Shown here: piece by piece, positions 7,107 through 33,007 of the stretch
Layout: each line of letters starts with the position of its first letter
How positions within the stretch are numbered: the stretch's first letter is position 1
Assembly: GCA_900553785.1 (NCBI GenBank)
Contig: USES01000001.1
Coordinates: forward strand, 45,995 to 109,994
Length of the DNA: 64,000 bases
Origin: an uncultured Clostridium sp.
GTDB lineage: Bacteria > Bacillota > Clostridia > TANB77 > CAG-465
Direction of reading: 5' to 3'
Translations under genes and position numbers: made by a program
The notes under the pieces: generated by a model
The model's input: only the letters and a program-made list of their open reading frames with translations
What the model was told of the DNA's origin: nothing
Database searches by the model: none

Positions 7107-7154
7107 TGTAAATGTAATTAGAAATAATTACTATGTTAAAAAGGAGGTAATATT

Positions 7155-10711: not shown

Positions 10712-10714
10712 TAT

Positions 10715-11521: not shown

Positions 11522-11531
11522 GAGAAATTAT

Positions 11532-12626
11532 ATGAAAAAAGTAATGTTAGTATTTGGTACTAGACCAGAAGCAATTAAAATGTGTCCGTTAGTAAAAGAA
11601 TTAAACTCACGTCAAAATATTGAAACTGTAGTGTGCGTTTCTGGCCAGCATAGAGAAATGCTACAACAAGTATTAGATACATTTGATGTAGTACCAAAAT
11701 ATAATTTGGATATAATGAAAGAAAAGCAGACATTGTTTGATGTAACAGTAAATATACTAGAAAGAATTAAAGAAGTACTAGAATGTGAAAAACCAGATAT
11801 TGTTTTAGTTCATGGGGACACATCTACTACATTTGTTACAGCACTTGCGTGTTTTTATATGCAAATACCTGTAGGGCATGTAGAAGCAGGGCTTAGGACT
11901 TACAATATTTATTCGCCTTATCCTGAAGAATTTAATAGACAAGCTGTAGGTATAATTGCTAAATATAATTTTGCACCGACAGAGGCAGCAAGGGAAAATC
12001 TAATAAATGAAGGTAAGAATAAAGACAGTATATTTGTTACAGGAAATACGGCTATTGATGCATTGAAAACAACCGTAAATGCAGAATATACACATCCAAT
12101 TTTAGAGTGGGCAAAAGGAAGCAAACTTATACTTCTTACAGCTCACAGAAGAGAGAATTTAGGGGAACCTTTAAAACATATTTTTAAAGCAATTTTAAGA
12201 GTTGTGAACGAAGTCCCAGATATAAAGGTGGTTTATCCAATTCATATGAATCCTGTTGTAAGAAATACCGCTAGTGAAGTATTTGGAGATAATGACAGAA
12301 TAAAGATAATAGAGCCACTTGATGTATTAGATTTTCATAATTTTATCAACAAATCTTTCCTAGTACTTACAGATAGCGGAGGAATACAAGAAGAGGCTCC
12401 TTCTCTTGGAAAACCAGTTCTTGTATTAAGAGATACAACAGAAAGACCCGAAGGTGTAAAAGCTGGAACATTAAAACTTGTTGGAACAGATGAAGAAACT
12501 ATATATAATGAATTTATGAAATTATTATGTGATAAAGATGAGTATGCAAAAATGTCAAAAGCATCTAACCCATATGGTGATGGTTTGGCTTCAAAAAGAA
12601 TAGCGGATTTATTGGAAAAAATGTAG
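11532..12626 (+). CDS. wecB: UDP-N-acetylglucosamine 2-epimerase (non-hydrolysing)
   Basis: MLVFGTRPEAIKMCPLV, HGDTSTT and TDSGGIQEEAPSLGKPVLVLR motifs. Confidence 0.9.
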   Translation: MKKVMLVFGTRPEAIKMCPLVKELNSRQNIETVVCVSGQHREMLQQVLDTFDVVPKYNLDIMKEKQTLFDVTVNILERIKEVLECEKPDIVLVHGDTSTTFVTALACFYMQIPVGHVEAGLRTYNIYSPYPEEFNRQAVGIIAKYNFAPTEAARENLINEGKNKDSIFVTGNTAIDALKTTVNAEYTHPILEWAKGSKLILLTAHRRENLGEPLKHIFKAILRVVNEVPDIKVVYPIHMNPVVRNTASEVFGDNDRIKIIEPLDVLDFHNFINKSFLVLTDSGGIQEEAPSLGKPVLVLRDTTERPEGVKAGTLKLVGTDEETIYNEFMKLLCDKDEYAKMSKASNPYGDGLASKRIADLLEKM

Positions 12627-12634
12627 AGGTTTTT

Positions 12635-13570
12635 ATGAAATTTAGTTTAATTGTACCTGTATACAATGTAGAAAAATATTTAGATAAGTGTTTGAAAAGT
12701 ATCGAGGCTCAGTCATATAAAGACTTTGAAGTAATAATTGTAAATGACGGTTCACCAGATAATTCCCAAGAGATAATAAATGAATATGTAAATGAAGATA
12801 GTAGATTTAAAGCTTACATAAAAGAAAATGGTGGTTTAAGTGATGCAAGAAACTTTGGAATTACTAAAGCACAAGGTGAATATTTGCTATTTATTGATTC
12901 TGATGATTATATAGAACACGATTTATTGTCTTCTGTTAGTGCAGTTTGTGATGGCAATGATATCATTAAATTTAATATGACTTTAGTTGATGAAAAATAT
13001 AACGTTATTAAAAAAGCAAAACATTATGAAACAAAGTCTGAGGCAACATTTAAGGATGTTTTAAATGTAGAGTTCTTTCAGCCAGCCTGTGGTTATGCAT
13101 ATAATGCAACTTTTTGGAAAAATAACAACTTAGAATTTGCAAAAGGAAAAATCCATGAAGACTTTGGCTTAATTCCATATTGTACACTTATTGCTAAAAA
13201 AAGATATTTGTTAGACTATTATGGATACAATTATGTACAGCGTACAGGTAGTATTATGAACGGGGCTCATAAAGCCAAAAGAAGAGCTTATGATATGTTG
13301 TTTCACTTTGATACGTTAGTGGGAAAAATAAATAATATATCTGATGCAAGCGTAAATAAAAAAGATAAAAGCTTGTATTTAAGTTATATTGCAAATAATA
13401 CTATAAGCATGATTAGGTTTTTAGATGATAAAGACAAACCTGAATATTTAAAAGAATTAAAGGAAAGAAAAATCGTAAAGTATATGTTAGCAGATACATT
13501 GTCAAGAAAGATTAAAAAAATAATCGCAAGTATTTCGCTAAAGATGTATACAAAGTATAGATTTAAATAA
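12635..13570 (+). CDS. Glycosyltransferase family 2
   Basis: LIVPVYNVEKYL...VIIVNDGSPD and FIDSDD motifs. Confidence 0.8.
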   Translation: MKFSLIVPVYNVEKYLDKCLKSIEAQSYKDFEVIIVNDGSPDNSQEIINEYVNEDSRFKAYIKENGGLSDARNFGITKAQGEYLLFIDSDDYIEHDLLSSVSAVCDGNDIIKFNMTLVDEKYNVIKKAKHYETKSEATFKDVLNVEFFQPACGYAYNATFWKNNNLEFAKGKIHEDFGLIPYCTLIAKKRYLLDYYGYNYVQRTGSIMNGAHKAKRRAYDMLFHFDTLVGKINNISDASVNKKDKSLYLSYIANNTISMIRFLDDKDKPEYLKELKERKIVKYMLADTLSRKIKKIIASISLKMYTKYRFK

Positions 13571-13586
13571 TAGTAGGAGAATAATA

Positions 13587-14588
13587 ATGACTAAGGTAAG
13601 TATAATTGTACCAGTATATAACACAGAAAAGTATTTAAAAAAATGTATAGACAGCTTGCTTAATCAAACTTTAAAAGACTTGGAAATAATAATTGTAAAT
13701 GACAGTTCACCAGACGATTCGCAAAAAATTATAGATGAATATGTAGCAAAATTTCCAGATAGAATAAAATCCATTATAAAAGAAAATGGCGGTCAGGGCT
13801 CTGCCAGAAATCTAGGATTAGAAGCTTCTTCAGGAGAATATGTAGGATATGTAGATAGTGACGACTTTGTTGATACACATATGTATGAAGATATGTATAA
13901 TACGGCTATTAAAGACAACAGCGATATAGTAGATGTTGGATTTTATATATACTCTGAATCTGGCAAAGTTATTAAGGAAGATATTTATAGGAGTGAACGT
14001 ACACCAACAAATCTTAAAGAAACAAAACAATTACTTTTTGATAAAACAGCTGTTACCAATAAGCTATATAGAGCCTCTTTACTTAAAGACAATAATATTA
14101 GATTTAGAGAAAAGAAATGGTATGAGGATTTTGATTTTGTAATAAAGACTATTTGCTATGCCAAAAAGGTATCTATTATAGAAAGACCGTATTATTACTA
14201 TTTATTAAGACAAGGCTCTACAATGAATAATTCTAATATAGAGAGAAATCTTGAAATACTTGAGGCAATGGATGAGATCCTTAACTTCTTTAAAGAAAAT
14301 AATATATATTTTGAATACATTGAAGAATTAGAATTTTTGGCCGTATTTCATATATATTTACCAACGAATGTTAGAATAATAAGGTCTAATGCAAGTTGGA
14401 GCGAAAAGCATAAAATTATAAATAAAATAAATGGCTATATGGATATGAATTTCTCAAATTATAAAAATAACAAATACATTGAGACTTTCCTATCTAAAAA
14501 GAAAAGGAGTATACTTTCGCTTATTAAACTAAAACTATATTGGATTGTATGGTTATGTTTTAAGCTTAAGGATACTTTTGCAAAGTAA
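13587..14588 (+). CDS. Glycosyltransferase family 2
   Basis: SIIVPVYNTEKYL...IIIVNDSSPD and YVDSDD motifs. Confidence 0.8.
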   Translation: MTKVSIIVPVYNTEKYLKKCIDSLLNQTLKDLEIIIVNDSSPDDSQKIIDEYVAKFPDRIKSIIKENGGQGSARNLGLEASSGEYVGYVDSDDFVDTHMYEDMYNTAIKDNSDIVDVGFYIYSESGKVIKEDIYRSERTPTNLKETKQLLFDKTAVTNKLYRASLLKDNNIRFREKKWYEDFDFVIKTICYAKKVSIIERPYYYYLLRQGSTMNNSNIERNLEILEAMDEILNFFKENNIYFEYIEELEFLAVFHIYLPTNVRIIRSNASWSEKHKIINKINGYMDMNFSNYKNNKYIETFLSKKKRSILSLIKLKLYWIVWLCFKLKDTFAK

Positions 14589-14598
14589 GGAGAAAAAA

Positions 14599-16341
14599 AT
14601 GAAAAAATTTTTAACTAAACTATATAGTGAAAAAACAGTTAAGATATTGTTAATATTATTTCCTGTGATAGAACTAATTACAAGTATTAGCATTATTAAA
14701 TTTGGTGCTGTAATAACGCCTGGTAAAATATATAAGCTTTTGTTACTTATATATGCAACTATATATTTAATTTTCGTGGGTAAGAAAAATAGATGGTTGT
14801 CATGGACTACAGTAGCTGCTGTTGCTCTTATATGTATAGCAAATATTGTATTTACTATTGATGGGTTTGAAATTAAGCATATTTATTCAAAAGCATTAGA
14901 TTTATCTAGCTTTGTTGCATTCCCAATATATACAGCATTTTTTATTGCATACGTTAAAAACAAAAATAAATTGCCAATGGATGCACTTGTTATAGTAGCA
15001 ACTATATATAGTGCAGTAATATTTATTGCAGATATTACTGGGACTTCATTTATTAGTAGAGGTGGCTATTTAGAATTTGGAAAAAAAGGTTGGTTTTATT
15101 CCGCTAATGAGATAGGACAACTACTTACTGTATTATATCCAATAGTTTTGTATAAGCTTGTTCAAAACAGATCTATAAGTAGATATATAAGTTTTGCATT
15201 AGCTAGCTATTGTTTACTTAATATAGGTACAAAAGCGGCATTATTTGGAGCAATAGGAACACTTGTTTTTGCTGTGATATTTTCTGTAGTATTAGCTTTG
15301 TTAAAAAGGCCTCAACTTGCTAAAACGGTCTTTTCTATAAGTTGTATTACTCTTGTTATTACACTAGGGCTTTTAAAATTTACGCCAACATTTAGATATA
15401 TGAAGCACTACTATACTGCAAATACAACAGAAGATGGTGATGTACCTGCAGATGAGATGATATTTACCGGTAGGCAAACGAAACTTGAAAGACAAATAGA
15501 AAAATACGAAAACTCATCTGTTGCGAATAAGTTGTTTGGAATGAAAGATTCTGTGAAAGAAAAAGGCGGAGATGGTAAATACTTAATAGTTGAGCGAGAT
15601 TTCCATGATATTTTATTTAACTATGGAATAGCTGGTATTCTTATGTATTCTATGATAATAATAGTACTACTATCAAAATTTGTATGGTATATATTTAAGA
15701 ATTTCAAGCAGAATTGTAACTTGTGTAATTTTACTTTGGGACTGTCAGCTTGCCTAGGAATATTTGCTGCATATATATCTGGCCATACTCTATCTTCACT
15801 TACAACTTCATTTTTCTTAAGCATTGTGTTTGCTAAAATATATGAAATTTACGATAATATAGAACAAGAAGACTCTCAAGGCAAGGTTATGTTTATATGT
15901 AGTGTAGGTGGGCATCTAACTCAAATGTTACAAATAAAGAGTTTATTTAGCAAATACGAATATGTTCTTGTAACAGAAAAAACTGAAGTTACAAGTAATT
16001 TAAAAAATAAGTATAATATCAAATATATGGTACATGGTACAAGAAAATATATATACAAGTATATAGTAATAGAGTTATATAACATATTAAAATCTATGGT
16101 ATATTTCTTTAAATATTCTCCAGAAGTAGTTGTTACTACTGGTACACATACGGCCGTACCAATGTGTTTTATAGCAAAGTTTTTTGGTAAAAAAGTTATA
16201 TTTATTGAAAGTTTTGCAAAAAGAAATACACCAACTAAATCTGGTAAACTAGTATATAAAATAGCAGATACTTTCGTTATTCAATGGGATAGCTTAAAAG
16301 AAGTTTATCCTAAAGCAGAAGTTTGGGGGTGGATCTATTGA
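14599..16341 (+). CDS. Fusion protein with an N-terminal Wzy/O-antigen-ligase-like polytopic domain (paralog 2) and a C-terminal Alg14-like glycosyltransferase accessory domain
   Basis: The likely start is ATG at 14599 after an AAGGAG RBS. Residues ~1-440 are homologous to the 7856 product. Residues ~445-581 (MFICSVGGHLTQMLQ...VVTTGTHTAVPMCFIAKFFGKKVIFIESFA) match the Alg14/Cps14F family (GSxGGH motif). Confidence 0.6.
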   Translation: MKKFLTKLYSEKTVKILLILFPVIELITSISIIKFGAVITPGKIYKLLLLIYATIYLIFVGKKNRWLSWTTVAAVALICIANIVFTIDGFEIKHIYSKALDLSSFVAFPIYTAFFIAYVKNKNKLPMDALVIVATIYSAVIFIADITGTSFISRGGYLEFGKKGWFYSANEIGQLLTVLYPIVLYKLVQNRSISRYISFALASYCLLNIGTKAALFGAIGTLVFAVIFSVVLALLKRPQLAKTVFSISCITLVITLGLLKFTPTFRYMKHYYTANTTEDGDVPADEMIFTGRQTKLERQIEKYENSSVANKLFGMKDSVKEKGGDGKYLIVERDFHDILFNYGIAGILMYSMIIIVLLSKFVWYIFKNFKQNCNLCNFTLGLSACLGIFAAYISGHTLSSLTTSFFLSIVFAKIYEIYDNIEQEDSQGKVMFICSVGGHLTQMLQIKSLFSKYEYVLVTEKTEVTSNLKNKYNIKYMVHGTRKYIYKYIVIELYNILKSMVYFFKYSPEVVVTTGTHTAVPMCFIAKFFGKKVIFIESFAKRNTPTKSGKLVYKIADTFVIQWDSLKEVYPKAEVWGWIY

Positions 16342-16829
16342 TTTTAGTCACATTAGGAACTCAATTTGAACCATTTGATAGATTATTAAAGGAAGTTCAA
16401 AAACTAAAAACAGATGAAAAAATAATAGTACAAGCGGGACATACAAAATTTGAAAGCGATAAAATGGAGATAATAGATTTTATACCATATGAAAAAATGA
16501 ACGAATTAGTAGATGAAGCAAGAGTAATAATTACACATGGTGGTACTGGTTCAATAGTAGAACCACTAAAAAAAGGAAAAATTATAATTGGTTGTGCAAG
16601 ACTAGAAAAATATGGTGAACACGTAGATAATCATCAAACGGAGCTTGTTTCTATATTTGCAGATCAAGGATATATACTAGAATTTAAAGAGGGTGACGAC
16701 ATGAATGTGCTGCTTAAAAAGGCTGAGAGTTTTGTTCCAAAAAAATATACAAGTAATACAAATGTATTTATAGAAAAGTTAGAGAACAAAATAGATTCAT
16801 ATTTATCTAAAAGGGAGAAGGATATATGA
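16323..16829 (+). CDS. Alg13-like glycosyltransferase (GT28 C-terminal domain, Cps14G/EpsF-like)
   Basis: LVTLGTQFEPFDRLLKEVQKL and IITHGGTGSIVE match the Alg13/Cps14G family. It overlaps the previous gene's end. It uses a TTG or GTG start. Confidence 0.65.
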   Translation: MGVDLLILVTLGTQFEPFDRLLKEVQKLKTDEKIIVQAGHTKFESDKMEIIDFIPYEKMNELVDEARVIITHGGTGSIVEPLKKGKIIIGCARLEKYGEHVDNHQTELVSIFADQGYILEFKEGDDMNVLLKKAESFVPKKYTSNTNVFIEKLENKIDSYLSKREKDI

Positions 16830-17947
16830 GTTTTAGAAGACGTGTATTAATTGAAAGTAATAAAGATAAACCTAAATTATTTATTTGCACTCCTAGAATA
16901 TCTGTAGGTGGAATGGAAAGAGCATTTATAAATTTACTTAATATGAGCAATATATCTAAAAATTATGAGGTTTGGGCATATATAGGATATATTAAAGATA
17001 AAGAATATATGTCAAAACTTCCACAAGATGTACATGTTCATGTTGTATGTAAAGGCCAATGGAACATAGTAAATAAAATAAAAACTGTTTTTAAAATGCT
17101 TTGGGATTGTTTGTTTATTCCGAAATTTAATAAGTCTATATGTTTTGGACATAATAATGCTTTTTTATCTTTGATTACTAGAAGAGCAAGTAAAGATAAT
17201 GTAATTTTTATACATGCAGATTTAGAAAGTAGAAATGATAAGCAATTAAAAGACATGAAAAGATTTCTTAAATTTGAAAAGTTTAAAAAGGTAGCCTGTG
17301 TTTCAAATAAAGCAGCAGAAAGTTATAAAAAGTATTTTAGCAACCAAAATGTATTTGTAATAAATAACTATATAAACGGTAAGCAAATATTAGAGGAATC
17401 TAAAGAGAATACTGAAGATATTACCAAACTATTTAATATTGATAAACTTGCCTTTGTAAATATATGTAGACAAGAAGAAAAAAGTAAGAAGCTTTCAAGA
17501 CTTATAAATGCAGTATATAACCTAAAACAAGAAAAGTATGACTTTAAGATTTACTTAATTGGAAATGGCCCAGACACCAATATGTATAAAGAAATGGTAA
17601 ATAATTTAAATCTTCAAGATTACATTATATTTTTAGGTCAGAAGATAAATCCATATCCATATATAAAGAACATCTCAGCTTTAGTTTTTTGCTCAATATA
17701 TGAGGGGTACGGTATTGTTTTGGATGAGGCTAGAGTATTAAACGTTCCGTTTATTTCTACTGATGTGGCAGATGCTGAGCTTATTGCTAAAGAGGGATTT
17801 GGAATAGTTTGTGACAATTCAGAAGAAGGCATATATAAAGCAATAAAAGAATTTATAATAAATGGATATAAAATAACAACGCCATTTGATTATAATAAGT
17901 TTAACGATGATATAACACAAAAATTAGATAAATTATTGGAGGATTAA
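16826..17947 (+). CDS. Glycosyltransferase family 4 (GT-B, GT1 superfamily)
   Basis: A C-terminal EGYGIVLDEARVLNVPFISTDV EX7E-like motif. Confidence 0.7.
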   Translation: MSFRRRVLIESNKDKPKLFICTPRISVGGMERAFINLLNMSNISKNYEVWAYIGYIKDKEYMSKLPQDVHVHVVCKGQWNIVNKIKTVFKMLWDCLFIPKFNKSICFGHNNAFLSLITRRASKDNVIFIHADLESRNDKQLKDMKRFLKFEKFKKVACVSNKAAESYKKYFSNQNVFVINNYINGKQILEESKENTEDITKLFNIDKLAFVNICRQEEKSKKLSRLINAVYNLKQEKYDFKIYLIGNGPDTNMYKEMVNNLNLQDYIIFLGQKINPYPYIKNISALVFCSIYEGYGIVLDEARVLNVPFISTDVADAELIAKEGFGIVCDNSEEGIYKAIKEFIINGYKITTPFDYNKFNDDITQKLDKLLED

Positions 17948-17953
17948 AAAAAC

Positions 17954-18829
17954 ATGCATGAAGATAATATTGTAAAAAAAGCCTTTAAATCTTTTTTAGT
18001 AGGTGTAGGCGGTATAAATGATGTTTTAGCAAATAAAATAATGTATAGAGTACACACAGGTAAAAACTTAAACCTTAAAGATCCAAAGCTCTTAAATGAA
18101 AAACTTATGAAGTTAAAGATAGAAGATTATAACAATAATGATTTAGTTGTAAAATGTGCGGACAAGTATAAGGTTCAAGAGTATGTTAAAGAATGTGGGC
18201 TTGAGGATACACTTAATCCAATAATAGGAGTATACGAAAAAGCTGAGGATATAGACTTTGATGCTTTACCAGATAAGTTTGCACTTAAATGTAATCATGG
18301 ATGCGGCTTTAATATTATTTGTACAGATAAATCAAAATTAGACAAAGAAGAAACAGTTAGAACTTTAAATAAATGGTTAAAAAAGAAGTTTGGAAAAGAG
18401 AGTAGGGAACTTCACTATCTTAAAATAAAGCCACTAATTATATGTGAAAATTATATCGAAAGCAAAGATGGAGTTTTACCTAATGATTACAAAATATATT
18501 GTTTCAATGGAGAACCTAAAGTTATTTTAACTTGTTCGGAAAGAGAGAATAAGCTAAAATTAAACTTTTATGATTTAAATTGGAATGAATTGATGTATGG
18601 GCATGAAAAAGATAGATCTCATAAATCAATTGCTAAACCTGCTTGTTTAGATAAGATGATAGAAGACGCCAGAATATTGGCTAAACCATTTAAATTTGTG
18701 AGAGTAGACTTTTATGATTTAAACGGAAAACCTTTATTTGGAGAATTAACTTTTACACCTGCAAGGTGTTCAGCTGCATATTATAATGATGATGGAGCTA
18801 AGACATTAGGAGATATATTAAAAATTTAG
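17954..18829 (+). CDS. TupA-like ATP-grasp protein (teichuronopeptide-type amino-acid ligase family)
   Basis: 291 aa. The ALKCNHGCGFNII and DYKIYCFNGEPKVI motifs resemble the ATPgrasp_TupA family found in capsule and teichuronopeptide loci. Confidence 0.5.
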   Translation: MHEDNIVKKAFKSFLVGVGGINDVLANKIMYRVHTGKNLNLKDPKLLNEKLMKLKIEDYNNNDLVVKCADKYKVQEYVKECGLEDTLNPIIGVYEKAEDIDFDALPDKFALKCNHGCGFNIICTDKSKLDKEETVRTLNKWLKKKFGKESRELHYLKIKPLIICENYIESKDGVLPNDYKIYCFNGEPKVILTCSERENKLKLNFYDLNWNELMYGHEKDRSHKSIAKPACLDKMIEDARILAKPFKFVRVDFYDLNGKPLFGELTFTPARCSAAYYNDDGAKTLGDILKI

Positions 18830-19547: not shown

Positions 19548-19579
19548 GTCTTAAAATCGATTCTAGAGCGTCGCTTTTT
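19548..19579 (+). repeat. Direct repeat copy 1 (GTCTTAAAATCGATTCTAGAGCGTCGCTTTTT)
   Basis: Near-identical to 20583-20615. It contains the small palindromes AATCGATT and TCTAGA and includes the xer 5' UTR. Confidence 0.8.
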
Positions 19580-19589
19580 GGAGGTTTTT

Positions 19590-20540
19590 ATGAAAAAAAC
19601 AGAGTTTGATGATGTTCCTGTTATAATGCAAGATTTTTTGAAAAATTACTTAACTGTTGCTAAAGGTCGTTCAGATTTAACTGTTAGCGAATATTATTAT
19701 GACTTAAGAGACATATTTAAGTTTATAAAGCGAGATAAATTTAATATTAAAGTTGATGATTACAAAGAAATAAATATTTCAGATTTAGATATGGATTTTT
19801 TTAAATCTATAACTACGGATGAACTTTACGAATATTTGTTCGCACATTCAAATAAAGCCGTTTCAAGGGCCAGAAAAATTTCATCAATGAAAACTTTTTT
19901 TAATTATTTATGCAATATAAAAAAAATAATAGATAAAAATCCTTGCATAGGATTAGAAGGACCAAAATTAGAAAGTAGATTACCAAAATATTTACAATTA
20001 GATGAGGCCCTCTCTCTCCTACACTCAGTTGACGGAGAATTTAAAGAGCGTGACACAGCGATCCTTACTATATTCTTAAATTGCGGTCTGCGTTTATCTG
20101 AATTAGTAAATATTAACTTATGTGATATTAAAAATAACACACTTACTATTATAGGTAAAGGAAATAAAGAGCGTAGCATATATCTTAATGAGGCTTGTCA
20201 GAAAGCAATAAAAGAATATATGCTTGTAAGACCAATAGATAATGTTAAAGATAAAAATGCTTTGTTTTTAAGTAAGCAAAACAGAAGGATTAGTCCAAGA
20301 ATGGTAGAGTTGCTTGTTAAGAAATATATTCAACTTGCAGGTTTAGATACTAGAAAGTATACCCCTCATAAACTAAGACATACAGCAGCTACTCTTATGC
20401 ATAAATATGGTAACGTAGATGTTTTAACATTGCAACAAATTTTGGGGCACGAAAGTATAGCTACAACTCAAATATATACTCACATAGATCGTGAAGATGT
20501 AAAGCAAGCACTTGAAAGTAATCCACTGAACAAAATATAG
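19590..20540 (+). CDS. Tyrosine site-specific recombinase, XerC/XerD-like
   Basis: An N-terminal core-binding domain. The C-terminal catalytic region carries HKLRHTAAT...LGHESIATTQIYTHI (R..H..R..Y). A GGAGG RBS precedes the ATG at 19590. Confidence 0.85.
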   Translation: MKKTEFDDVPVIMQDFLKNYLTVAKGRSDLTVSEYYYDLRDIFKFIKRDKFNIKVDDYKEINISDLDMDFFKSITTDELYEYLFAHSNKAVSRARKISSMKTFFNYLCNIKKIIDKNPCIGLEGPKLESRLPKYLQLDEALSLLHSVDGEFKERDTAILTIFLNCGLRLSELVNINLCDIKNNTLTIIGKGNKERSIYLNEACQKAIKEYMLVRPIDNVKDKNALFLSKQNRRISPRMVELLVKKYIQLAGLDTRKYTPHKLRHTAATLMHKYGNVDVLTLQQILGHESIATTQIYTHIDREDVKQALESNPLNKI

Positions 20541-24377: not shown

Positions 24378-24482
24378 ATTTTATTCTCCTTTACTACATA
24401 AGTACCAAATAATTATACCACAAATTTCGCAGTTTACAAGTCTTTTAACACTTCTATGGGAAAATATAAGAAGAGTAAATAA

Positions 24483-26639
24483 TTACTCTTCTGTCTTAAC
24501 TGTTTTTTTCTTTGTACTACGTACTTTTTTTGGTGTGTCCTGTGTTTCGTCAACTACTTCCTTTTTCTTTCTTGCTCTAGTCTTTTTAACTGTTATATCT
24601 TCTTGTCCCTCTTTAAAGTTATCTTCTATTACTTTATACATCCATGCCGCAGAACCGGTATACCAAGTCCAACCACCACGGCCAACATGTTCTGGATTAG
24701 CATAAACATCAGCTGCAACAACATATGGCTCTACCATATATATATCTGCTTTTTCTTTGTTATCTGAATGGTTAATTGGATTTATGATGTTTAATATATC
24801 CATTGCCTTATTATTTTCGCCTATTTCAAAATACGCCTTTGCGAGCCATATAGCAGCATGAGTATATTGTCCTCCATTTTCTCTAACACCAGGAACATAC
24901 GCTTTGATATAGCCTGGGTTATGTTTTGGCTTATCAAAAGGAGGATAAAGTAGTTTTACAATATTATGTGTTCTATCTACCAAATATTTTTCAGCATTTT
25001 CCAGAGCTGATTTAATTTCATTTTTGCAATCAGGATAATCCTTTAAAGCAATTGCTGCCCATACTTGAGGGATAAGGTCAATCTTGCATTCATCACAAGA
25101 TTTATCTCCTAATGCTGTGCCATCTGCATAATATGCACGAATAAAATACTCATCATTATATCCATTTTCGAATATAGCTTGTTTTAATATATGCCTTTCA
25201 CTTAAAAAATGCATTTTGCTTACATCATCGCCTCTATATTCAGCTATTCTTGAAAACCTATTTAGAATGTCCATCATAAACAATGTAAGCCATACAGATT
25301 CACCTCTTATATTGCTATAACCATCGCACCAATCTCCGTCACCAATATCTAGAAGACCATGTTTACCTTTTCTAGAAAGTCCATAGTTTATGGCACGAAC
25401 GGCATGCTCATAAACAGTTGCCTCTGTATCAATTGGCTTAAATACATCATATATTTCTCTTCTATTTTCCAAAGGTTTATCTTCCAAGAACTTAGTTTTT
25501 TCATTTAATATAGTCATATCTTCAGTCTTTTCTACATATTCACTTAATGTATATGGTAGCCAAAGATAATCGTCACTAAACAAAGTTCTTATTCCTGCGC
25601 CATTATGTTCATGCCACCAGTGAAGAACATCTCCTTGCTCAAATTGTTTAGAACTGTGTTTTATAATTTGAGCCTTTGTAAACTCTGGCCAGGTTTTAAT
25701 TAGTGCCAACGAATCTTGTAATTGATCACGAAATCCGTATGCGCCTCCTGCTTGATACAAAGCAGTTCTTGCAAAGAGTCTACATGCAATACATTGATAT
25801 AACAACCAACCATTGGCCATTATATCTAAATTTCTATCACCAGTTTTAAAATTTTTAATAACTAATTTTCTCCAATATTCTTTTGTATTATCATATTCAG
25901 CTAATACATTTTTTTCATTACTATACTTAGCTATAATCTCATTTAGTTTGTCTATTCCTTCTTCAGTTGCTCCTAAAAATATAGCAGCATGTCTTGTAGA
26001 ATTAGATTTTACAATAACTCTAAGTCGTAATATGCTATTTTCTTCATCATATTCAACTGTAGATTTATCTGGTTCTCCATAAATTATTCCTTTAGCATAC
26101 ACTAAAACATTGTTAAAATACTCACTGTATGGGTTTTTGAAAAGTAATGTATTATTATCTATTTTAGAAACTATATATCTTGATGCCATTTCTTTTGCAT
26201 TGCCTAACACCATATCCAGTTTATATTCAATTACAATTTCCTTATCTAATGCTCTGTTATTTGTAAGGGTGATATATTGAATTTTTAGGTCATCATTAAC
26301 TGGAACAAATATATCCATGTTTCTTTCTATATTGTTGTTTTCGCCTGTAACTTTAGCATAGCCGAATCCATACGTTAAATTATATCCTGCATCAAAAACA
26401 CCTTTAAATTCTTCGCCTGGGGTAAACATTGCCCAATCATTGCACCAAGACGTTATTTTGAATTCACTTGCATTTTTGTAAAAAGAGTATACTGTACCAT
26501 ATGAAGAAATAACTGTGCCAAATCTTGAATTGCTAAGTACATTGCACCAAGGTACAGGAGTCTGAGTATTAAATATCTCATACTCATCTCCTGATTTATT
26601 AAAACAACCATAATTATTAAATGCGTCTGTATTTTTCAT
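24483..26639 (-). CDS. GH94-type glucan phosphorylase module, the C-terminal part of a split cyclic beta-1,2-glucan synthase
   Basis: The N-terminus (YEIFNTQTPVPWCNVLSNSRFGTVISSYGTVYSFY) resembles the start of GH94 phosphorylases. GGAYGFRDQLQD and GDGDWCDG resemble GH94 catalytic motifs. It has a basic C-terminal tail. Confidence 0.7.
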   Translation of the reverse strand: MKNTDAFNNYGCFNKSGDEYEIFNTQTPVPWCNVLSNSRFGTVISSYGTVYSFYKNASEFKITSWCNDWAMFTPGEEFKGVFDAGYNLTYGFGYAKVTGENNNIERNMDIFVPVNDDLKIQYITLTNNRALDKEIVIEYKLDMVLGNAKEMASRYIVSKIDNNTLLFKNPYSEYFNNVLVYAKGIIYGEPDKSTVEYDEENSILRLRVIVKSNSTRHAAIFLGATEEGIDKLNEIIAKYSNEKNVLAEYDNTKEYWRKLVIKNFKTGDRNLDIMANGWLLYQCIACRLFARTALYQAGGAYGFRDQLQDSLALIKTWPEFTKAQIIKHSSKQFEQGDVLHWWHEHNGAGIRTLFSDDYLWLPYTLSEYVEKTEDMTILNEKTKFLEDKPLENRREIYDVFKPIDTEATVYEHAVRAINYGLSRKGKHGLLDIGDGDWCDGYSNIRGESVWLTLFMMDILNRFSRIAEYRGDDVSKMHFLSERHILKQAIFENGYNDEYFIRAYYADGTALGDKSCDECKIDLIPQVWAAIALKDYPDCKNEIKSALENAEKYLVDRTHNIVKLLYPPFDKPKHNPGYIKAYVPGVRENGGQYTHAAIWLAKAYFEIGENNKAMDILNIINPINHSDNKEKADIYMVEPYVVAADVYANPEHVGRGGWTWYTGSAAWMYKVIEDNFKEGQEDITVKKTRARKKKEVVDETQDTPKKVRSTKKKTVKTEE

Positions 26640-26649
26640 TTAATTCACC

Positions 26650-29600
26650 TCATGCATTATCTACATTTTTATCTTTATTATTTTCATTTTTATATATGCC
26701 ATCCCTAAAGATTGAAATGTTATCTATATTAAACCTTGATACAAAGTTAAATAAGTCTTTTTCGTTATCATTTAACGTTTCTAGATTTACAACATAAATA
26801 TTTCCTCTAGTATATGTAGTGTAAACTACTCTAGATAATATTTCTTCTATATGTGTTTTTATAGGTTCACCACTATATAGTTCTTCATTTACAGTCAGTA
26901 CTACATCTAAATCTAATTTTCTAGACTTAACATAGTCCATAAATGATATTACCTCTTTAACCATGCTTGAATCTTCAATTCTTCCTATTCTTACTGTAAT
27001 TATTGGTAGATCTCCAGATATACCAAATCTCCACAACATAGATTGACTATATTTTTTGTCCCAGAACAAATCATTATTCTTATGACGTTCTTTAAATAAA
27101 GTTTCTGCTACTATATAATTATATATTTTTGCTTTTCCTTCTTTAAGTTTTAAATATTTTGCTAAGATGTTTTCTTTTTGATCTGCAAAGCTAACTTGTT
27201 TATCTAGTGTAGCTTTTTCAGCATTTACTATAGCATGTGTTATATCATATTTTCTATCTGCTGCACCTACTATATAGTAGAATGTCTGAGTTTCACTAGG
27301 ATCTAGGAATATATGTGCTTTATGTGCCATTACAGGCCATAAAGGATATTTTACAAATACACCATCAAAAGCATCTTTTCCATCATTTTGAGTAAGTTTA
27401 ATTTTTTCAGTTTCGACCTCAGACTCAATATCTATTCCAACAAGTTTACTGTACACGTAGAAATCTGCATTATTTGCATCATTTGTTCTTGAACGTTTCG
27501 TTGCTATAAGTGTTTTTAAGTCTTCATCGTATTCTTCCTCTATAAGCAAACTATTGAATGCTGGATGAATAATGTTTGCCGCATCGTTTGCCATTGCAAG
27601 TTCAAGTTCTGTGTTGATTACTATTTCACGTCTAATATCTGAAGAGTTAAATAATGTAACTTTTCTTATTTCCATGTTATATTCAGGAGCTATTGTTACT
27701 TCGGTAGTTGTTTCTATTGCACCATCTCGTCTTGTATACCTTGTACTTGAAAGTGAAGCAGCATAAGAATAACTGTCTGGCGTATTATAGTTAGGCATTA
27801 AAGTTGATGACCATATTTTACCATTAGTTCTATCTGTAAATACTATTGTATTTCCAAGTGAGTTTTGCTCTAAGAATCTATTTTTAGTTATAGCATTACC
27901 ATTATAATATATATAATTTCTGCCATTATATAGTAAAATCTCATTTAGTCTACCATTTGTATGCATAGACATAGTTAGTTCTTTATTATCATTTTCAGTT
28001 TCTAGGCTTTCGTAAGACACAAAGCTTGTGAACATTTCTCTTACAGGCTCTTTATATGTATTTTCCTTAGATTTACTACTTTCAGTTAACATTACAGTAA
28101 GAGGAACACGCTCTTTTAGCAATATGTCTGCAGCATCTATATTAGGATTAGAATGAAATCTTTCTTTTATTATTTCATTATTGATATAGTTGTTGATTGC
28201 TGTAAGAATCATACCTTGGTGATGAGCCATGTATGTTTTTACTACTTCATACTTTTTATCCTTAGAAATGTGAGCTTTTGTAAAATCTATTGCCTCATAA
28301 AAGCCATATGTAGCATATGAATTATATTTCTTTAAGTTACGTATATTACTATAAACTTTTTTTGGTGAATAGTTTAAACATAAAAGTGAAGAATATGGAG
28401 ATACAACCATATTATCATTAAGTCCTCTTTTAAGTCCAAGCCATGGAATACCAAAAGCTTTATATTGATAATTTTGTTCGTTATCTTGGACTGCAAATGC
28501 AGATTCAGATACTCCCCAAGGTACACCCGCACTTTTTGCATATTTAATTTGACTATCCATGGCAAAAGATAAAGCTTCGTCTATCAATGTATAATTATAT
28601 GTTTTTGTAAACAAATTAGGCATAAAATATTCAAATGAGGTTCCACTCCATGAAAGTAATCCTTTCATTCCATCTACTTTTACTAGATTTCTCGCAAGTG
28701 TAAACCAGTGCTTTGATGTTACATTAGATACAGCTATTGCAATTAAGCTAGTAAGTCTAGATTCGCTCATAAGCATATCATAATAACTATCAACTAATTT
28801 AGCATTCTCAACATCATATCCTATTGAAAATATGTTTCTGGACTGAACGTAAAGTAATGAGAAATCTGTGTTTTTCATTATGTCTTCGCAAACACTCTTT
28901 AAATTCAACATTTTAGTTCTTAAACTATCAATTACCACTTTTGTATTGATTAACGTATCTAAAAATTGGTTTACAATATAAATACTTGCAACAAAATTTC
29001 CACTATCAACGGTAGAAACAAACCTAGGTTTTAAAGGTTCTAAAGTAACTATATTATACCAGTTATATAAATGACCATGCCACTTTTCAAGTTTAGTTAT
29101 AGAGTTCAGAGACTTGTCTAATTTATCTATAGCAGCATCTAATGTAATATAATCTAAATCATAAGCATCAATTATTGCAAGTAATCCAAATCCTATATTT
29201 GTAGAAGAGGTTCTATTAACAAGTTTTGGTCTTCTATTTTCTTGGAAGTTATCCGGTGGCAAATAATTGTTTGTTTCGTTCATAAAAGTATCAAAATACT
29301 TCCATGTACGCTGGCCAATTTCTTTAATTTCTTTTTTCTCTTTATCTGTTAGTTTATTTTTTCCATCAAATATAACCTTTTTGCTCATTATATAAGCAGC
29401 GTATGGCGCAATTAGCATGAATGTACCTATTACAAGCATTAAAATATTATTAGAGTTGTTTAGCCCAAGTATAATACTAAGAGCCATAAAGAATATTGCA
29501 AGTACAACGTTTGACCACATATTTTTATATACATAGCCAAGTTTTTCCTTGGCGCTTTTTTCAATAGTTTCTGCCGTAGCCCATTCCAATAGTTTTTTCT

Positions 29601-32190
29601 TAGTAATAAACATACGGTATAAAGAGGTTATAAAAGCGTTTAACACAACCCAAGACTTATAAGGTATAGTAACTATGTTTTCTACCATCTTAAGAAGGTT
29701 AGCCCTTATTCCAAATATTACTGGAATATATTGTTTTTGTTTTCTTTCAGCATTCTTACCAAAAATTATTTCATTTATAATAGATAATATATATCCAAAA
29801 TTCATTGTTATAAATGTTATAATAGTAGCCTTTGTGAAAGCATCACTTGGCATAAATGCAGCTATAACAAGTAATAACAGTGCCGCTACAGGTAAAAGTT
29901 CGCGTCTTAAATTGTCAAATATTTTCCATCTAGATAATAGTGATAAACCGCTTCTAGGTTTGAAAATCCATGATGCAATTTGCATATCTCCTCTAAACCA
30001 TCTGTGATTTCTTTTTGTATATGCTATAAAGTTTGAAGGGAAACCATCTTGTACTTCTACATCTGATGCAAGCCCAGTTCTCATGAAACTTCCTTCTAGT
30101 AAATCATGACTTAGTATTAGGTTTTCAGGTACTTTATTTCCTATAAGTTCATCAAAAAGTTTTATATCATAAATACCTTTTCCAGTATATATTGCTTCAC
30201 CAAATAAATCTTGATAAAGGTTAGAAATTGCATTTGTGTATATATCAAGTCCTCCAAATCCGCCAAATACTTTAGAAAATATACTGCTGTTTGCAGCTTC
30301 TATATCAAGGCCTATAGCAGGCTGTATAAGACCATAGCCAGATTTTACTATCTTTCCATTTTTAGATAGAACTGGTTTATTTAATGGATGAGCAATAATG
30401 GCTACAAGTTCTTTAGCAGAGTTTAGAGATAGAGACGTATCCTCATCTATTGTAAGTATATACTTTACGTCCGGTAAGTCTCTGTGAGTTATATACATTG
30501 CATTGTCTATCTCTGTTTCGGTAAGTTTTCCAAGAAGTAAAGAATTAAGTTGGGTTAATGCTCCACGTTTTCTTTCCCATCCCATATAGCATTCTTCACC
30601 TGCGCTATATACTCTTTTTCTATATATAAAATTAAATAGTTTTGGTTCAGATGGATATTTAGCGTTAAGTTCCTCTATTTTTTTATTTCCATATGCTACT
30701 ATCTTTGCATCCATATCTACAATTTTTTCAGATTTAGCAACGCAATCTCCTAAAAGCATGTAATACATATTTTGTGAACGATTAGCAAGATATGTAATTT
30801 CCATTTTCTTTATCATCTTGTCTATTTTTTCAATGGAATTTATAACAGTAGGCATTGCTATCATTGTACTATGTTCCTCGTCTATTGTTTTAGCAAAGTT
30901 AAATCTAGGCAATGGTTTAGGAACAACTAGTTTACCAACTAAATAGCATATAAGCTTGTCCGTTATTTCAAGTCCAAATGAGAAAAATATAACATTAAAT
31001 ATAATTCTTAATGCCGTTTGATAATCAGAAGAGAATAAGTAATCAAACAACCATGTACACAAACTAGACAAAACTAATGTTATAAATACATATATTAAAG
31101 GCATATTTGGTTTAATTATTTTTTGTTTGAAATTAACTGCAAAAGCACTTTTACCTAAAGCTTTTATAAGTACAGCCTTATCTTCACCAATTAAGAAATG
31201 ACCTACATGTTTTTCATATTTTTCAGAACATTCAATAACCTTTTTAGCTATGTACATTTCTGAAACGTCATATTTTTTAGCCAGTCTAATTATTTCGTGT
31301 CTATATCTGCCTTTTGTCTTATGATCACATTTTTTATATTCACCTGTAAAATCTTGAAGTAATATTTCATCAATTCTATTTACATTGATCAAAACTTCTT
31401 CCCAGTTAGTACTAGCTATAGTTTTAAGTGACGTTATAGCATTAGCCATAAGCCCTGTTACTTTTGCTATTTCGTTATGTTCTTTTTCTATTGCTTCATC
31501 AATAGTAAATCCTATTTTATTTGTTTCATCTTTAAGTTCAGATAAATATTCATCTCCAACTTTCCCTAAATCTTTGAGCCTAAATGCTAAATATTCAATG
31601 TATGCTGTGTTTGAACTTTTTATACTATTTGAACTATTTATAAGGTCTTTTTTTAATTTACCAAGACTTTTAAGAGAAGTACTAAAAACAACATCTAATT
31701 TTCTAGATAAATCCCTATTACACTTTTTTTCAGCTTTTAGTTTTTGCATTTGAGCATTAAATATAGACATAGCAAGTCTTCTTGTGAATTTAATTACTGC
31801 AATTCTTAACATAGTTGGAAAATATGATAATTCATCATATGTTACATATGTATATTTTTGGAATTCCTTCAAATAATTACTTACTATTCCGTCATCAATA
31901 ACTCCAGCATTCTTTTCTGTTACTTCATTTGCCATAAAACTGATTCTTAGCTGTGTTTTCCCATCGTTTGGTTTTACGTTTGGGAATGTTAAATCTGTTG
32001 TTTTAGATATTATATCTCTTGAAATCTTATACTCTCTTTCTATTATATAAAAGTTATCTAATAACCACTGACCAGCTGGATGTGTAGATATTTTATATTC
32101 AGTTGTCATATTAAGTAAGTCGTAAGTAGCTTTTATAATTTTAAAATCTTCTTTTAAATTAAAGTATATATCTAATAAATATTCTTGCAT
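26650..32190 (-). CDS. Cyclic beta-1,2-glucan synthase (Cgs/NdvB/ChvB-like), the N-terminal 1846-aa part with a cytoplasmic N-domain, a GT84 domain, TM regions, an alpha/alpha6 cyclization-type domain and the first part of the GH94 region
   Basis: A GT84-like region (ILTIDEDTSL DxD, NHRWFRGDMQ). Several TM clusters. HGHLYNWYN..TSSTNIGFGLLAII alpha/alpha-barrel glucanase-like. 1846 aa. Confidence 0.7.
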   Translation of the reverse strand: MQEYLLDIYFNLKEDFKIIKATYDLLNMTTEYKISTHPAGQWLLDNFYIIEREYKISRDIISKTTDLTFPNVKPNDGKTQLRISFMANEVTEKNAGVIDDGIVSNYLKEFQKYTYVTYDELSYFPTMLRIAVIKFTRRLAMSIFNAQMQKLKAEKKCNRDLSRKLDVVFSTSLKSLGKLKKDLINSSNSIKSSNTAYIEYLAFRLKDLGKVGDEYLSELKDETNKIGFTIDEAIEKEHNEIAKVTGLMANAITSLKTIASTNWEEVLINVNRIDEILLQDFTGEYKKCDHKTKGRYRHEIIRLAKKYDVSEMYIAKKVIECSEKYEKHVGHFLIGEDKAVLIKALGKSAFAVNFKQKIIKPNMPLIYVFITLVLSSLCTWLFDYLFSSDYQTALRIIFNVIFFSFGLEITDKLICYLVGKLVVPKPLPRFNFAKTIDEEHSTMIAMPTVINSIEKIDKMIKKMEITYLANRSQNMYYMLLGDCVAKSEKIVDMDAKIVAYGNKKIEELNAKYPSEPKLFNFIYRKRVYSAGEECYMGWERKRGALTQLNSLLLGKLTETEIDNAMYITHRDLPDVKYILTIDEDTSLSLNSAKELVAIIAHPLNKPVLSKNGKIVKSGYGLIQPAIGLDIEAANSSIFSKVFGGFGGLDIYTNAISNLYQDLFGEAIYTGKGIYDIKLFDELIGNKVPENLILSHDLLEGSFMRTGLASDVEVQDGFPSNFIAYTKRNHRWFRGDMQIASWIFKPRSGLSLLSRWKIFDNLRRELLPVAALLLLVIAAFMPSDAFTKATIITFITMNFGYILSIINEIIFGKNAERKQKQYIPVIFGIRANLLKMVENIVTIPYKSWVVLNAFITSLYRMFITKKKLLEWATAETIEKSAKEKLGYVYKNMWSNVVLAIFFMALSIILGLNNSNNILMLVIGTFMLIAPYAAYIMSKKVIFDGKNKLTDKEKKEIKEIGQRTWKYFDTFMNETNNYLPPDNFQENRRPKLVNRTSSTNIGFGLLAIIDAYDLDYITLDAAIDKLDKSLNSITKLEKWHGHLYNWYNIVTLEPLKPRFVSTVDSGNFVASIYIVNQFLDTLINTKVVIDSLRTKMLNLKSVCEDIMKNTDFSLLYVQSRNIFSIGYDVENAKLVDSYYDMLMSESRLTSLIAIAVSNVTSKHWFTLARNLVKVDGMKGLLSWSGTSFEYFMPNLFTKTYNYTLIDEALSFAMDSQIKYAKSAGVPWGVSESAFAVQDNEQNYQYKAFGIPWLGLKRGLNDNMVVSPYSSLLCLNYSPKKVYSNIRNLKKYNSYATYGFYEAIDFTKAHISKDKKYEVVKTYMAHHQGMILTAINNYINNEIIKERFHSNPNIDAADILLKERVPLTVMLTESSKSKENTYKEPVREMFTSFVSYESLETENDNKELTMSMHTNGRLNEILLYNGRNYIYYNGNAITKNRFLEQNSLGNTIVFTDRTNGKIWSSTLMPNYNTPDSYSYAASLSSTRYTRRDGAIETTTEVTIAPEYNMEIRKVTLFNSSDIRREIVINTELELAMANDAANIIHPAFNSLLIEEEYDEDLKTLIATKRSRTNDANNADFYVYSKLVGIDIESEVETEKIKLTQNDGKDAFDGVFVKYPLWPVMAHKAHIFLDPSETQTFYYIVGAADRKYDITHAIVNAEKATLDKQVSFADQKENILAKYLKLKEGKAKIYNYIVAETLFKERHKNNDLFWDKKYSQSMLWRFGISGDLPIITVRIGRIEDSSMVKEVISFMDYVKSRKLDLDVVLTVNEELYSGEPIKTHIEEILSRVVYTTYTRGNIYVVNLETLNDNEKDLFNFVSRFNIDNISIFRDGIYKNENNKDKNVDNA

Positions 32191-32278
32191 AAGTAAATCT
32201 CCTAATCAATATAATTTACCCCCATTATATACTAAATTTATCCAATATTCAAGACCTTTTCTATGCATAAATATATAC

Positions 32279-32310
32279 AAAAATAGCCGTCAAAATAAAC
32301 GGCTATTTTT
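32279..32310 (-). terminator. Rho-independent terminator at the end of the rnj-gltX-ileS-nifS-tepA-like operon
   Basis: Perfect hairpin AATAGCCGT..ACGGCTATT flanked by A/T tracts. Confidence 0.6.
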
Positions 32311-32317
32311 ATGTAAC

Positions 32318-33007
32318 TTATAGTGGAATTTCACTGAATTTAGAAAATATTTGAGTAGCAATATTGTACTTGATTATTTCTTTTTCAGTGAAAAATGTGT
32401 CCTCAAGTGAGCTAAATATGGTTTTAAGTTTATTTTTAGGTATTTTTGTCCTGGTTGAAATTATTTGTTTATAATTGTTTTGGCAATCCTCAAATGAATC
32501 CGCAAACTCCTTAAGTTCAGTTGTTTGCATCTGTTGTTTGAGCGGAAATATTGCCCGTATTTGATGTAATATATACGTAGTATCTCTCAAAAAATATCTT
32601 TCATCACCTAAAGCAAACAAAACGCATGCAGCACTGCAACATTTATTAAAAGCCACTGTAATAATCTTATTATCCATTGCTTGGAGTAAATTATACACAT
32701 CAATTGTAGGGTCCACTTCTCCACCTTCTGAATCTACCAATAAAACTATATCGCTAGTATCTTTTGAAATGATGAGTTCAAGCAAATAAGCAGAAACTTC
32801 ATCGTAAAAATCCGAATCTATGACTTCAGGTACTCTAATAAAGATTTTTTCAGACGTCATCCAAATCCTTTTGGAAGCACTATTTATAGTATCATCTTCT
32901 TCGATAGAACTTTCACTAATGTTCGGTAAATCAAAAGCAAATTTTTTGGCTTTCATAAATGAAATCCTCCTAATAAAATTATTTATTAAGTAAATACTTT
33001 TACTCAC
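32318..33007 (-). CDS. ClpP-like serine protease paralog (TepA-like, S14 family)
   Basis: VDSEGGEV..NKCCSAACVLFALG..ILHQI aligns to the ClpP INSPGG..GMAASMG..IMIHQP motifs, with the Ser and His retained. The start may be the internal Met at 32959. Confidence 0.55.
   Translation of the reverse strand: MSKSIYLINNFIRRISFMKAKKFAFDLPNISESSIEEDDTINSASKRIWMTSEKIFIRVPEVIDSDFYDEVSAYLLELIISKDTSDIVLLVDSEGGEVDPTIDVYNLLQAMDNKIITVAFNKCCSAACVLFALGDERYFLRDTTYILHQIRAIFPLKQQMQTTELKEFADSFEDCQNNYKQIISTRTKIPKNKLKTIFSSLEDTFFTEKEIIKYNIATQIFSKFSEIPL

Follow-up and report, generated by a model that had tools for sequence, protein, structure and literature searches.

Two consecutive open reading frames (ORFs) on the minus strand of a 64,000-nucleotide stretch of contig USES01000001.1 from an uncultured Clostridium sp. 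(the window; G+C content 30.7%) very probably encode a natural and conserved two-subunit form of Cgs (the synthase for cyclic beta-1,2-glucan) that was derived by gene fission, rather than the remains of a broken gene. The ORF listing places ORF1 at 26650..32190 (1846 amino acids (aa), ATG start) and ORF2 downstream of it at 24483..26639 (718 aa, ATG start), exactly as described in an earlier note on this DNA. That note had claimed that the pair is a Cgs/NdvB/ChvB homolog divided at a domain boundary, which is borne out by the Pfam assignments, the alignments to Cgs and the colinearity with a fused homolog that are described below, and it had left open whether the division represents a natural two-polypeptide Cgs or a recent frameshift. 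Judged from its sequence, the locus has every feature of a Cgs that we checked for, save that it is not a single polypeptide and that it lacks the C-terminal domain of the GH94 module.

The evidence that carries this reading came from a survey of related genomes, limited to one genome per species, in which 46 loci were identified. Forty-five of these are in metagenome-assembled genomes (MAGs) of uncultured "Clostridia bacterium" or "Clostridium sp." from the guts of water buffalo, sheep, rabbit, water deer and humans (Hadza and other), and include Clostridium sp. CAG:1219; at the remaining locus, in a MAG of Candidatus Eisenbacteria, the gene is fused and 35% identical. The 43 Clostridia loci for which upstream DNA was available are the basis of the counts out of 43 given throughout. 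No fused gene was found in these 43 related Clostridia species genomes (47-86% identity), and in all of them an in-frame stop codon lies no more than 66 nt upstream of the homolog of ORF2 (the GH94 gene). At 42 of the 43 loci the GH94 start is accompanied by an intact ORF1 homolog (47-86% identity) whose end falls -29 to +37 nt from it, and the ORF1 homologs are 1842-1898 aa in length wherever the contig is complete, two being cut by a contig end. Gene pairs on independent contigs include 1842 + 701 aa with a 17-nt gap, 1849 + 679 aa with a 14-nt overlap and 1851 + 676 aa with an 8-nt overlap, and the top 120 clusters of ORF2 homologs (57-98% identity) are all 615-722 aa. Both ORF1 and ORF2 are under purifying selection, since the ratio of nonsynonymous to synonymous substitution rates (dN/dS) was 0.06-0.12 for both genes in comparisons of the window with its relatives L006 or L007, with dS > 1. 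The split at every locus, the intact partner at almost all of them, the variety of the junctions and the purifying selection all favor the first of the two options in the earlier note, a natural two-polypeptide Cgs.

The second option, that a recent frameshift, pseudogene formation or a sequencing error has interrupted one fused Cgs gene of ~2560 aa, would explain why ORF1 and ORF2 are one base out of frame, and it would fit the observation that the proteins in the nearest clusters beyond the clade (clusters built at 50% identity) are for the most part fused, at 2500-2950 aa. It predicts a fused ORF differing from the window by one indel, which was sought among the 43 relatives, down to 47% identity, and found in none. 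The junction geometries, moreover, vary widely: overlaps of 1, 4, 8, 11, 14, 17, 20 and 29 nt and gaps of 0-37 nt with GGAGG-type sites were seen, all three frame offsets (0, 1 and 2) occur, and the frame in which ORF1 terminates already differs between the two closest relatives (the window and L006). Because the overlaps, gaps and frame offsets vary in this way, no single indel separates the window from a fused gene, and even those junctions that are in frame, such as those of L006 and L027, still hold stop codons. In addition, a Shine-Dalgarno site and an ATG are present exactly where free-standing GH94 proteins start, and both ORFs have remained under purifying selection even though dS has exceeded 1 since divergence. 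As such, the census of 43 genomes and the dN/dS values led us to reject a frameshift or sequencing error, which we regard as exceedingly improbable.

On the coding strand the junction (26637..26652, minus strand) reads AAT GCA TGA GGTGAATTAA ATG AAA. The TGA of ORF1 is at 26652-26650 and is overlapped by the Shine-Dalgarno sequence GAGGTG at 26651-26646, which had been noticed earlier and was found at that position, 6 nt ahead of the ORF2 ATG at 26639-26637. The spacer from the ORF1 stop to the ORF2 start is 10 nt, with a frame offset of 1; the 13 nt reported previously is correct if counted from the T of the TGA up to the A of the ATG, but is not the length of the spacer. The close packing of stop, Shine-Dalgarno site and start suggests that the two ORFs are translationally coupled. 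A scan of the window against Rfam returned only two tRNAs, with no match at the junction.

We also considered that ORF1 and ORF2 might be joined into one product by programmed ribosomal frameshifting or by readthrough of the stop codon, as the short distance between them, their being out of frame and the TGA stop might lead one to expect. In the three-frame translation, however, a TAA in the ORF2 frame immediately precedes the ORF2 ATG and a further stop lies seven codons upstream; since these stops lie in the ORF2 frame ahead of the ATG, a ribosome that had shifted would terminate. Neither the offset (0, 1 or 2) nor the spacing (-29 to +37 nt) is conserved in the clade, and no slippery motif is conserved across the clade junctions. 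On the grounds of the TAA and the unconserved junction geometry, we discarded programmed frameshifting and readthrough, whose probability we judge to be close to nil.

Sites flanking the pair are consistent with its being a single transcription unit. A promoter-like sequence (TTGAAT-17-TATAAT, 10 of 12 positions; 32224..32252, minus strand) is located ~35 nt upstream of the ORF1 ATG; it is a match to the consensus only, and the number of promoter-like sites in the region is not above that expected from shuffled sequence. A terminator-like hairpin with a 15-pair stem and a T-rich tail (32277..32312, minus strand) lies 3' of the upstream ClpP-like gene, between that gene and ORF1, and a second with a 10-pair stem and a T-rich tail (24469..24492, minus strand) overlaps the ORF2 stop codon; like the promoter-like site, the hairpins are consensus matches only. 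The promoter-like site may mark the start, and the hairpin at the ORF2 stop the end, of a two-gene unit, and from these flanking sites and the 10 nt with a Shine-Dalgarno site between the genes we infer that ORF1 and ORF2 are probably co-transcribed.

In order to place the cut on the structure of the enzyme, the two ORFs were aligned to the Agrobacterium tumefaciens Cgs chains of 8RF0, whose numbering is native, and 8RF9, whose numbering is offset by 19 as set from D2528, E1300 and Y694; the residue numbers for RrCGS were taken from PMC11842490 and PMC10901819. Sedzicki et al. divided the GP region of Cgs into GP1, a Rossmann-fold-like (RFL) insert (residues 1847-2012), GP2 and GP3 (PMC10901819). 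Residues 1714-1788 of ORF1 align to 8rf9 1862-1939 (native 1881-1958), within the RFL, and residue 3 of ORF2 is opposite native residue ~2043, the start of GP2 and the equivalent of the N-terminus of free-standing cellobiose phosphorylases. The GH94 module is thus divided, with GP1 and the RFL on ORF1 and GP2 and GP3 on ORF2. When the final 220 aa of ORF1 were joined conceptually to the first 220 aa of ORF2, the fusion gave one colinear high-scoring segment pair with the fused homolog P0124 (residues 1649-2080), interrupted only by two small gaps that are both in the variable linker. Because the joined ORF1 tail and ORF2 head are colinear with a fused homolog, the alignments indicate that the cut is in a variable linker at the boundary of the RFL and GP2 subdomains and that no structural element is missing. 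Alignment of the junction to intact Cgs homologs, which the earlier note had proposed as a check for lost residues, accordingly revealed none: against both A. tumefaciens Cgs and P0124 the fusion merely has a somewhat shorter variable linker.

ORF1 is predicted to be the synthase and cyclase subunit, comprising an N-terminal domain, GT84, transmembrane (TM) segments, a GH189-type cyclization domain, the GP1 beta-sandwich and the RFL subdomain. Its residues 8-1788 aligned with residues 39-1939 of the A. tumefaciens Cgs 8rf9 chain at an E-value of 1.4e-246 (phmmer; 8rf9/8rf0), and Pfam identified Glyco_trans_2_3 at 577-799, Glycoamylase, the Pfam domain that marks the Cgs cyclization region, at 1136-1349, and a GH94 supersandwich at 1412-1642. 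With the second GH94 signatures in ORF2, these GT2-type and GH94 domains are what the domain search suggested in the earlier note was to find, and the motifs which that note had quoted were all located in ORF1 (TIDEDT at aa 580, NHRWFRGD at aa 728, and HGHLYNWYN elsewhere in the translation). A scan against NCBIfam was uninformative, with only sub-threshold MdoH matches for ORF1 and none for ORF2. The GT84 (GT2-like) glycosyltransferase core (PF13632; aa 577-799, 29794..30462, minus strand) contains the DxD (D582, D584), Y651, SHDLLEG (H695, D696) and HRW (R730, W731) residues, and D582, D584, Y651, H695, D696, R730 and W731 are invariant in all 43 clade members. Y651, in GLDIYTNAI, is opposite Tyr 675 of the 8rf9 chain, which is Y694 of native RrCGS, the priming tyrosine in the IF1-homology loop, and on the basis of this alignment Y651 is predicted to be the autoglucosylated priming tyrosine. 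Hydropathy (Kyte-Doolittle) indicated TM-like segments at 363-386, 761-786, 890-914 and 915-936, a crude estimate that does not fix the exact number of helices; they flank the glycosyltransferase domain, as expected of a membrane-anchored Cgs.

The cyclization domain (GH189-type; aa ~958-1372, 28075..29319, minus strand) holds E1143, E1229 and H1323. The segment of aa 1080-1400 matched the TiCGS cyclization domain (8wy1) with an E-value of 1.3e-91 (phmmer), and in the structure-sequence comparison set ORF1 matched the Thermoanaerobacter italicus domain (8WY1) with an E-value of 7.5e-134. By alignment, E1143 corresponds to the cyclase Glu E1356 of TiCGS (E1300 of RrCGS), E1229 to the cyclase Glu E1442 of TiCGS (E1386 of RrCGS) and H1323 to the supporting His H1536 of TiCGS; all three are invariant in the 43 clade members. 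Downstream are GP1, the first GH94-type beta-supersandwich (PF06165, E-value 1.1e-23; aa 1412-1642, 27265..27957, minus strand), and the RFL homolog (aa ~1690-1828, 26707..27123, minus strand), which was recognized from alignment into the RFL of Cgs. ORF1 ends in a low-complexity tail (aa 1829-1846) after the RFL, and alignments to clade members stop at about aa 1828.

ORF2 (24483..26639, minus strand) has the predicted architecture of the remainder of the module, with a GP2 beta-sandwich (aa 1-225), a helical linker and an (alpha/alpha)6 barrel (aa 269-674), and no TM-like segment was seen in its hydropathy profile. Pfam identified a second GH94 supersandwich (PF06165) and the catalytic domain PF17167 at 255-672 (E-value 4e-100). 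Residue ~9 of ORF2 is opposite residues 2-3 of free-standing cellobiose phosphorylases, in agreement with the earlier statement that ORF2 begins like a GH94 N-terminus. In phmmer searches ORF2 matched residues 2024-2742 of the A. tumefaciens Cgs chain with an E-value of 1.3e-132, and the best free-standing GH94 among solved structures with one of 3.6e-53. An AlphaFold2 model (predicted local distance difference test (pLDDT) 84.9; predicted TM-score (pTM) 0.87) has the beta-sandwich at 1-225, the helical linker, the barrel at 269-674 and a disordered tail, and in Foldseek its best match was Cgs (8rfe/8rf0) with a query TM-score (TMq) of 0.84-0.85; cellobiose phosphorylases were matched with probability 1.00, a TMq of ~0.79 and a target TM-score (TMt) of ~0.70. 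By sequence and by modeled fold, then, no free-standing GH94 is as near to ORF2 as the GP module of Cgs. The counterpart of the GH94 catalytic Asp (D2528 of RrCGS) in the alignment is D439, within GDWCD, and R304, D305, D439 and H594 are invariant in all 43 clade members. We take R304 and H594 to be phosphate-binding residues, and the conserved His of the GGQYTHAA motif is presumably the phosphate-binding His.

The C-terminus of ORF2 is different from those of other GH94 enzymes. No C-terminal beta-domain (jelly-roll) was found in the model after aa 674, and the alignment to cellobiose phosphorylases stops at residue ~728-741 of their 811-822. In place of that domain is a Lys-rich tail that is predicted to be disordered (aa 679-718, 24486..24605, minus strand; pLDDT < 50 over 679-718), 15 of the last 45 residues of ORF2 being K or R. 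The C-terminal beta-domain is missing from the whole ORF2 clade; the Lys-rich disordered tail is present in the window and its closest relatives, and clade members of 676-690 aa stop just past the barrel. More distant split partners, at 755-803 aa, are of sufficient length to hold the domain, as judged by length alone.

In view of these features, it was important to weigh whether ORF2 is instead an independent cytosolic phosphorylase of beta-1,2-oligoglucans (or other beta-glucosides) in salvage or catabolism, with ORF1 alone making the glucan. The boundaries of ORF2 are those of a free-standing GH94 enzyme, and it has no TM segment and its own Shine-Dalgarno site; that the GH94 module is evolving can be seen from its loss of the C-terminal domain; and in Agrobacterium synthesis proceeds without GP activity (PMC10901819). 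However, the nearest relatives of ORF2 are not stand-alone genes in a catabolic context, as the GH94 gene always follows the GT84-cyclase gene, and at 42 of the 43 loci it strictly adjoins the ORF1 homolog, in most cases so closely that stop and start overlap or abut. ORF2 is also far closer to the Cgs module (E-values of 1e-132 versus 4e-53; TMq of 0.85 versus 0.79). Furthermore, GP1 remains on ORF1. In the fused enzyme and in SOGP, GP1 is one of three subdomains of the same phosphorylase module (PMC10901819), and its retention on ORF1 argues that ORF2 reassembles with ORF1. Lastly, C-terminal truncations of Agrobacterium Cgs affect function strongly, whereas the active site does not (PMC10901819). 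We therefore consider an independent role for ORF2 to be unlikely, if appreciably less so than either a frameshift or recoding.

For the two-subunit Cgs that we favor, a mechanism can be proposed whose steps rest on homology with the Agrobacterium and Brucella enzymes. ORF1 would sit in the membrane and glucosylate its own Tyr651, from which the GT84 domain would elongate a beta-1,2-glucan using UDP-glucose, and the GH189-type domain (E1143, E1229) would cyclize the chain by transglycosylation. ORF2, a soluble GH94 phosphorylase equivalent to GP2-GP3, would dock non-covalently on the GP1/RFL end of ORF1 and trim the growing chain with phosphate (catalytic D439), thereby setting ring size. We infer that the two proteins would physically assemble and that the product would be a cyclic glucan.

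Several observations weigh against a functional two-subunit Cgs. The neighbors of the pair are the housekeeping genes tig, clpP, clpX, a clpP-like gene, an aminotransferase gene and ileS, and no ChvA/NdvA-type ABC exporter was identified among the 10 flanking genes scanned, although an exporter need not be linked. The contexts of the relatives likewise contained no ChvA/NdvA/Cgt exporter, and a major facilitator superfamily gene was present in L003 only. A monoderm cell has no periplasm, which leaves no evident fate or role for a cyclic glucan. The absence from ORF2 of the C-terminal beta-domain that other GH94 enzymes and fused Cgs possess might change or lower its activity. Finally, all of the relatives are MAGs and two have a frameshift, which in L015 (7862-8000) is within the last ~50 codons of the ORF1 homolog and in L043 (7318-9349) is inside the GH94 gene, around aa 221; either errors of assembly or local decay of the genes could account for them.

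Two upstream ORFs of ~560-640 aa that were suspected of encoding an exporter proved to be GluRS and RNase J. Directly upstream of ORF1 is a divergent second ClpP-like gene (32318-33007, minus strand; 229 aa) that matches Pfam CLP_protease with just 73 bits, and the canonical tig-clpP-clpX genes are directly downstream of ORF2. Both flanks recur in the relative L001/L002, which places the Cgs pair within a conserved housekeeping block.

To assess how widely the split occurs, residues 1000-1846 of ORF1 were searched against 1.84 billion representative proteins and the best 150 representatives were considered. The window clade forms one close cluster (P0121, 63% identity), and the sole other match near that identity, P0122 (61%, 1313 aa), is apparently a fragment of this type that is truncated at its N-terminus. 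Beyond these two, identity is 39% or lower and most matches are fused proteins of 2500-2950 aa; approximately nine of the 150 best representatives stop at the same boundary as ORF1. Gene context revealed a two-gene arrangement at four of these more distant loci: L052 (1876 + 803 aa, 46-nt gap), L053 (1795 + 622 aa, 159-nt gap), L054 (1729 + 785 aa, 31-nt gap) and L055 (1409 aa, with a GH94 start 7 nt later). On comparison of the sequences, like fissions are thus present at the same boundary in other Firmicutes-type lineages. In a rough neighbor-joining tree (BLOSUM distances, 16 sequences) the window clade is a single all-split group, and two other split lineages are nested beside fused ones. 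This weak tree suggests that fission of Cgs has been repeated and independent in several lineages, and we propose that the fission in the window arose in an ancestor of this uncultured gut Clostridia clade.

A further arrangement was observed at L056 (1699-9672; ENA ERZ28018670 k141_172294), where the Cgs homolog is in three genes of 769 + 998 + 755 aa. The 769-aa gene corresponds to ORF1 aa 15-763 (N-terminal domain and GT84) and overlaps by 8 nt the 998-aa gene, which corresponds to ORF1 aa 828-1818 (TM segments, cyclase, GP1 and RFL) and whose product (P0123) is present on 6 contigs. The 755-aa GH94 gene begins 407 nt past the 998-aa gene, and inside this spacer is a 364-nt element (7022-7385) with 61-nt perfectly complementary terminal inverted repeats. 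The element looks like an insertion of the miniature inverted-repeat transposable element type, exactly at the RFL|GP2 split site.

A broader and more tentative proposal is that Cgs has been split repeatedly at domain boundaries in Firmicutes-type lineages (into two genes after the RFL in at least four lineages and into three genes once), and that in this clade, widespread in the guts of humans and animals, the GH94 subunit without its C-terminal domain binds the membrane synthase reversibly, which would allow ring size to be regulated or the subunit to serve in addition as a free beta-1,2-oligoglucan phosphorylase. We consider this rather doubtful as a whole. If it is true, uncultured gut commensals would make cyclic beta-1,2-glucans, which have hitherto been investigated as factors in the interaction of Brucella, Agrobacterium and rhizobia with their hosts.

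Elsewhere in the window, a surface-polysaccharide biosynthesis cluster (7856-18829, plus strand) contains genes for two O-antigen-ligase-like membrane proteins (one fused to an Alg14-like domain), a flippase, a UDP-GlcNAc 2-epimerase, GT2, GT1, GT28-C and DXD glycosyltransferases and a TupA-like ATP-grasp protein, and is followed by a tyrosine recombinase gene (19578-20540). The ORF for a WhiA homolog (1074-1775, plus strand) is only 233 aa, with a LAGLIDADG-like domain and a helix-turn-helix, and it overlaps the preceding methyltransferase ORF by ~20 nt. Its start is doubtful because of this overlap, and may have been miscalled, or the N-terminal domain may be absent. No sporulation genes were identified among the 32 window ORFs that were scanned against Pfam.

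That this enzyme family occurs in Clostridia was already known, as was its chemistry, and it is the split form that may be new here. The earlier note had considered a Cgs in a Gram-positive bacterium to be of interest in itself; a Cgs homolog is indeed present, but the claim to novelty was overstated, since Clocl_3028 of Acetivibrio clariflavus has been catalogued as a single GT84-GH94-GH189 protein (PMC12037645) and the cyclization domain of Thermoanaerobacter italicus has been characterized (PMC10834661). Our literature search, which left most subscription journals outside its reach, found no paper describing a split Cgs. The surprise for specialists is small and the practical value moderate; the finding should be useful to Cgs enzymologists and for the annotation of gut MAGs. 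Two questions were not settled by the cryo-EM of Agrobacterium Cgs: how the phosphorylase module and the synthase and cyclase parts communicate, and why truncating the module does harm although its active site can be dispensed with. A two-subunit Cgs that is natural, under selection and cut exactly at RFL|GP2 would be a ready-made construct for both. Annotation would be corrected as well: MAG records name the GH94 genes of the clade "hypothetical protein" or "cellobiose phosphorylase", and such names hide a probable cyclic-glucan pathway in dozens of uncultured gut Clostridia species of humans, ruminants and rabbits.

Among known systems, free-standing GH94 enzymes are the more distant comparison. 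Cellobiose phosphorylase shares with ORF2 its start position, beta-sandwich, helical linker, (alpha/alpha)6 barrel, catalytic Asp and conserved His (GGQYTHAA motif), but free-standing GH94s are only 20-24% identical to ORF2 and far more distant from it than the Cgs GP module. SOGP has an extra N-terminal domain that is absent from ORF2 and whose counterpart, GP1, is on ORF1. The closest characterized cyclization domain is that of TiCGS (Thit_1831; PDB 8WY1, the founding member of GH189), of which E1356, E1442 and H1536 are kept. The fused Firmicutes Cgs homologs have the same architecture as the window pair, without the insertion of the proteobacterial proteins, and the cyclization domain of ORF1 aligns in one stretch. 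The nearest fused relatives are 2643-2757 aa and 34-39% identical, whereas the window clade is split and without the GH94 C-terminal domain. Every characterized Cgs is a single polypeptide, in contrast to the Cgs of the window and of all 43 related genomes. Compared with Agrobacterium Cgs, one polypeptide of ~2800 aa, that of the window is in two (1846 + 718 aa), cut in the linker after the RFL, and is ~250 aa shorter overall; it lacks the region past the catalytic barrel, which amounts to ~57 further residues in the Agrobacterium chain and ~95 in fused Firmicutes homologs. Its host is of an uncultured gut Clostridia lineage, with no adjacent ChvA/NdvA exporter gene, and identity is roughly 30-35%, both to proteobacterial-type homologs and between ORF2 and the Agrobacterium structure. 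Despite these differences, the modules of the two systems come in one and the same sequence (N-terminal domain, GT84, TM segments, cyclization domain, GP1, RFL, GP2 and GP3), and the key residues of RrCGS are retained in the split pair, with Y694 corresponding to Y651, E1300 and E1386 to E1143 and E1229, and D2528 to D439 of ORF2.

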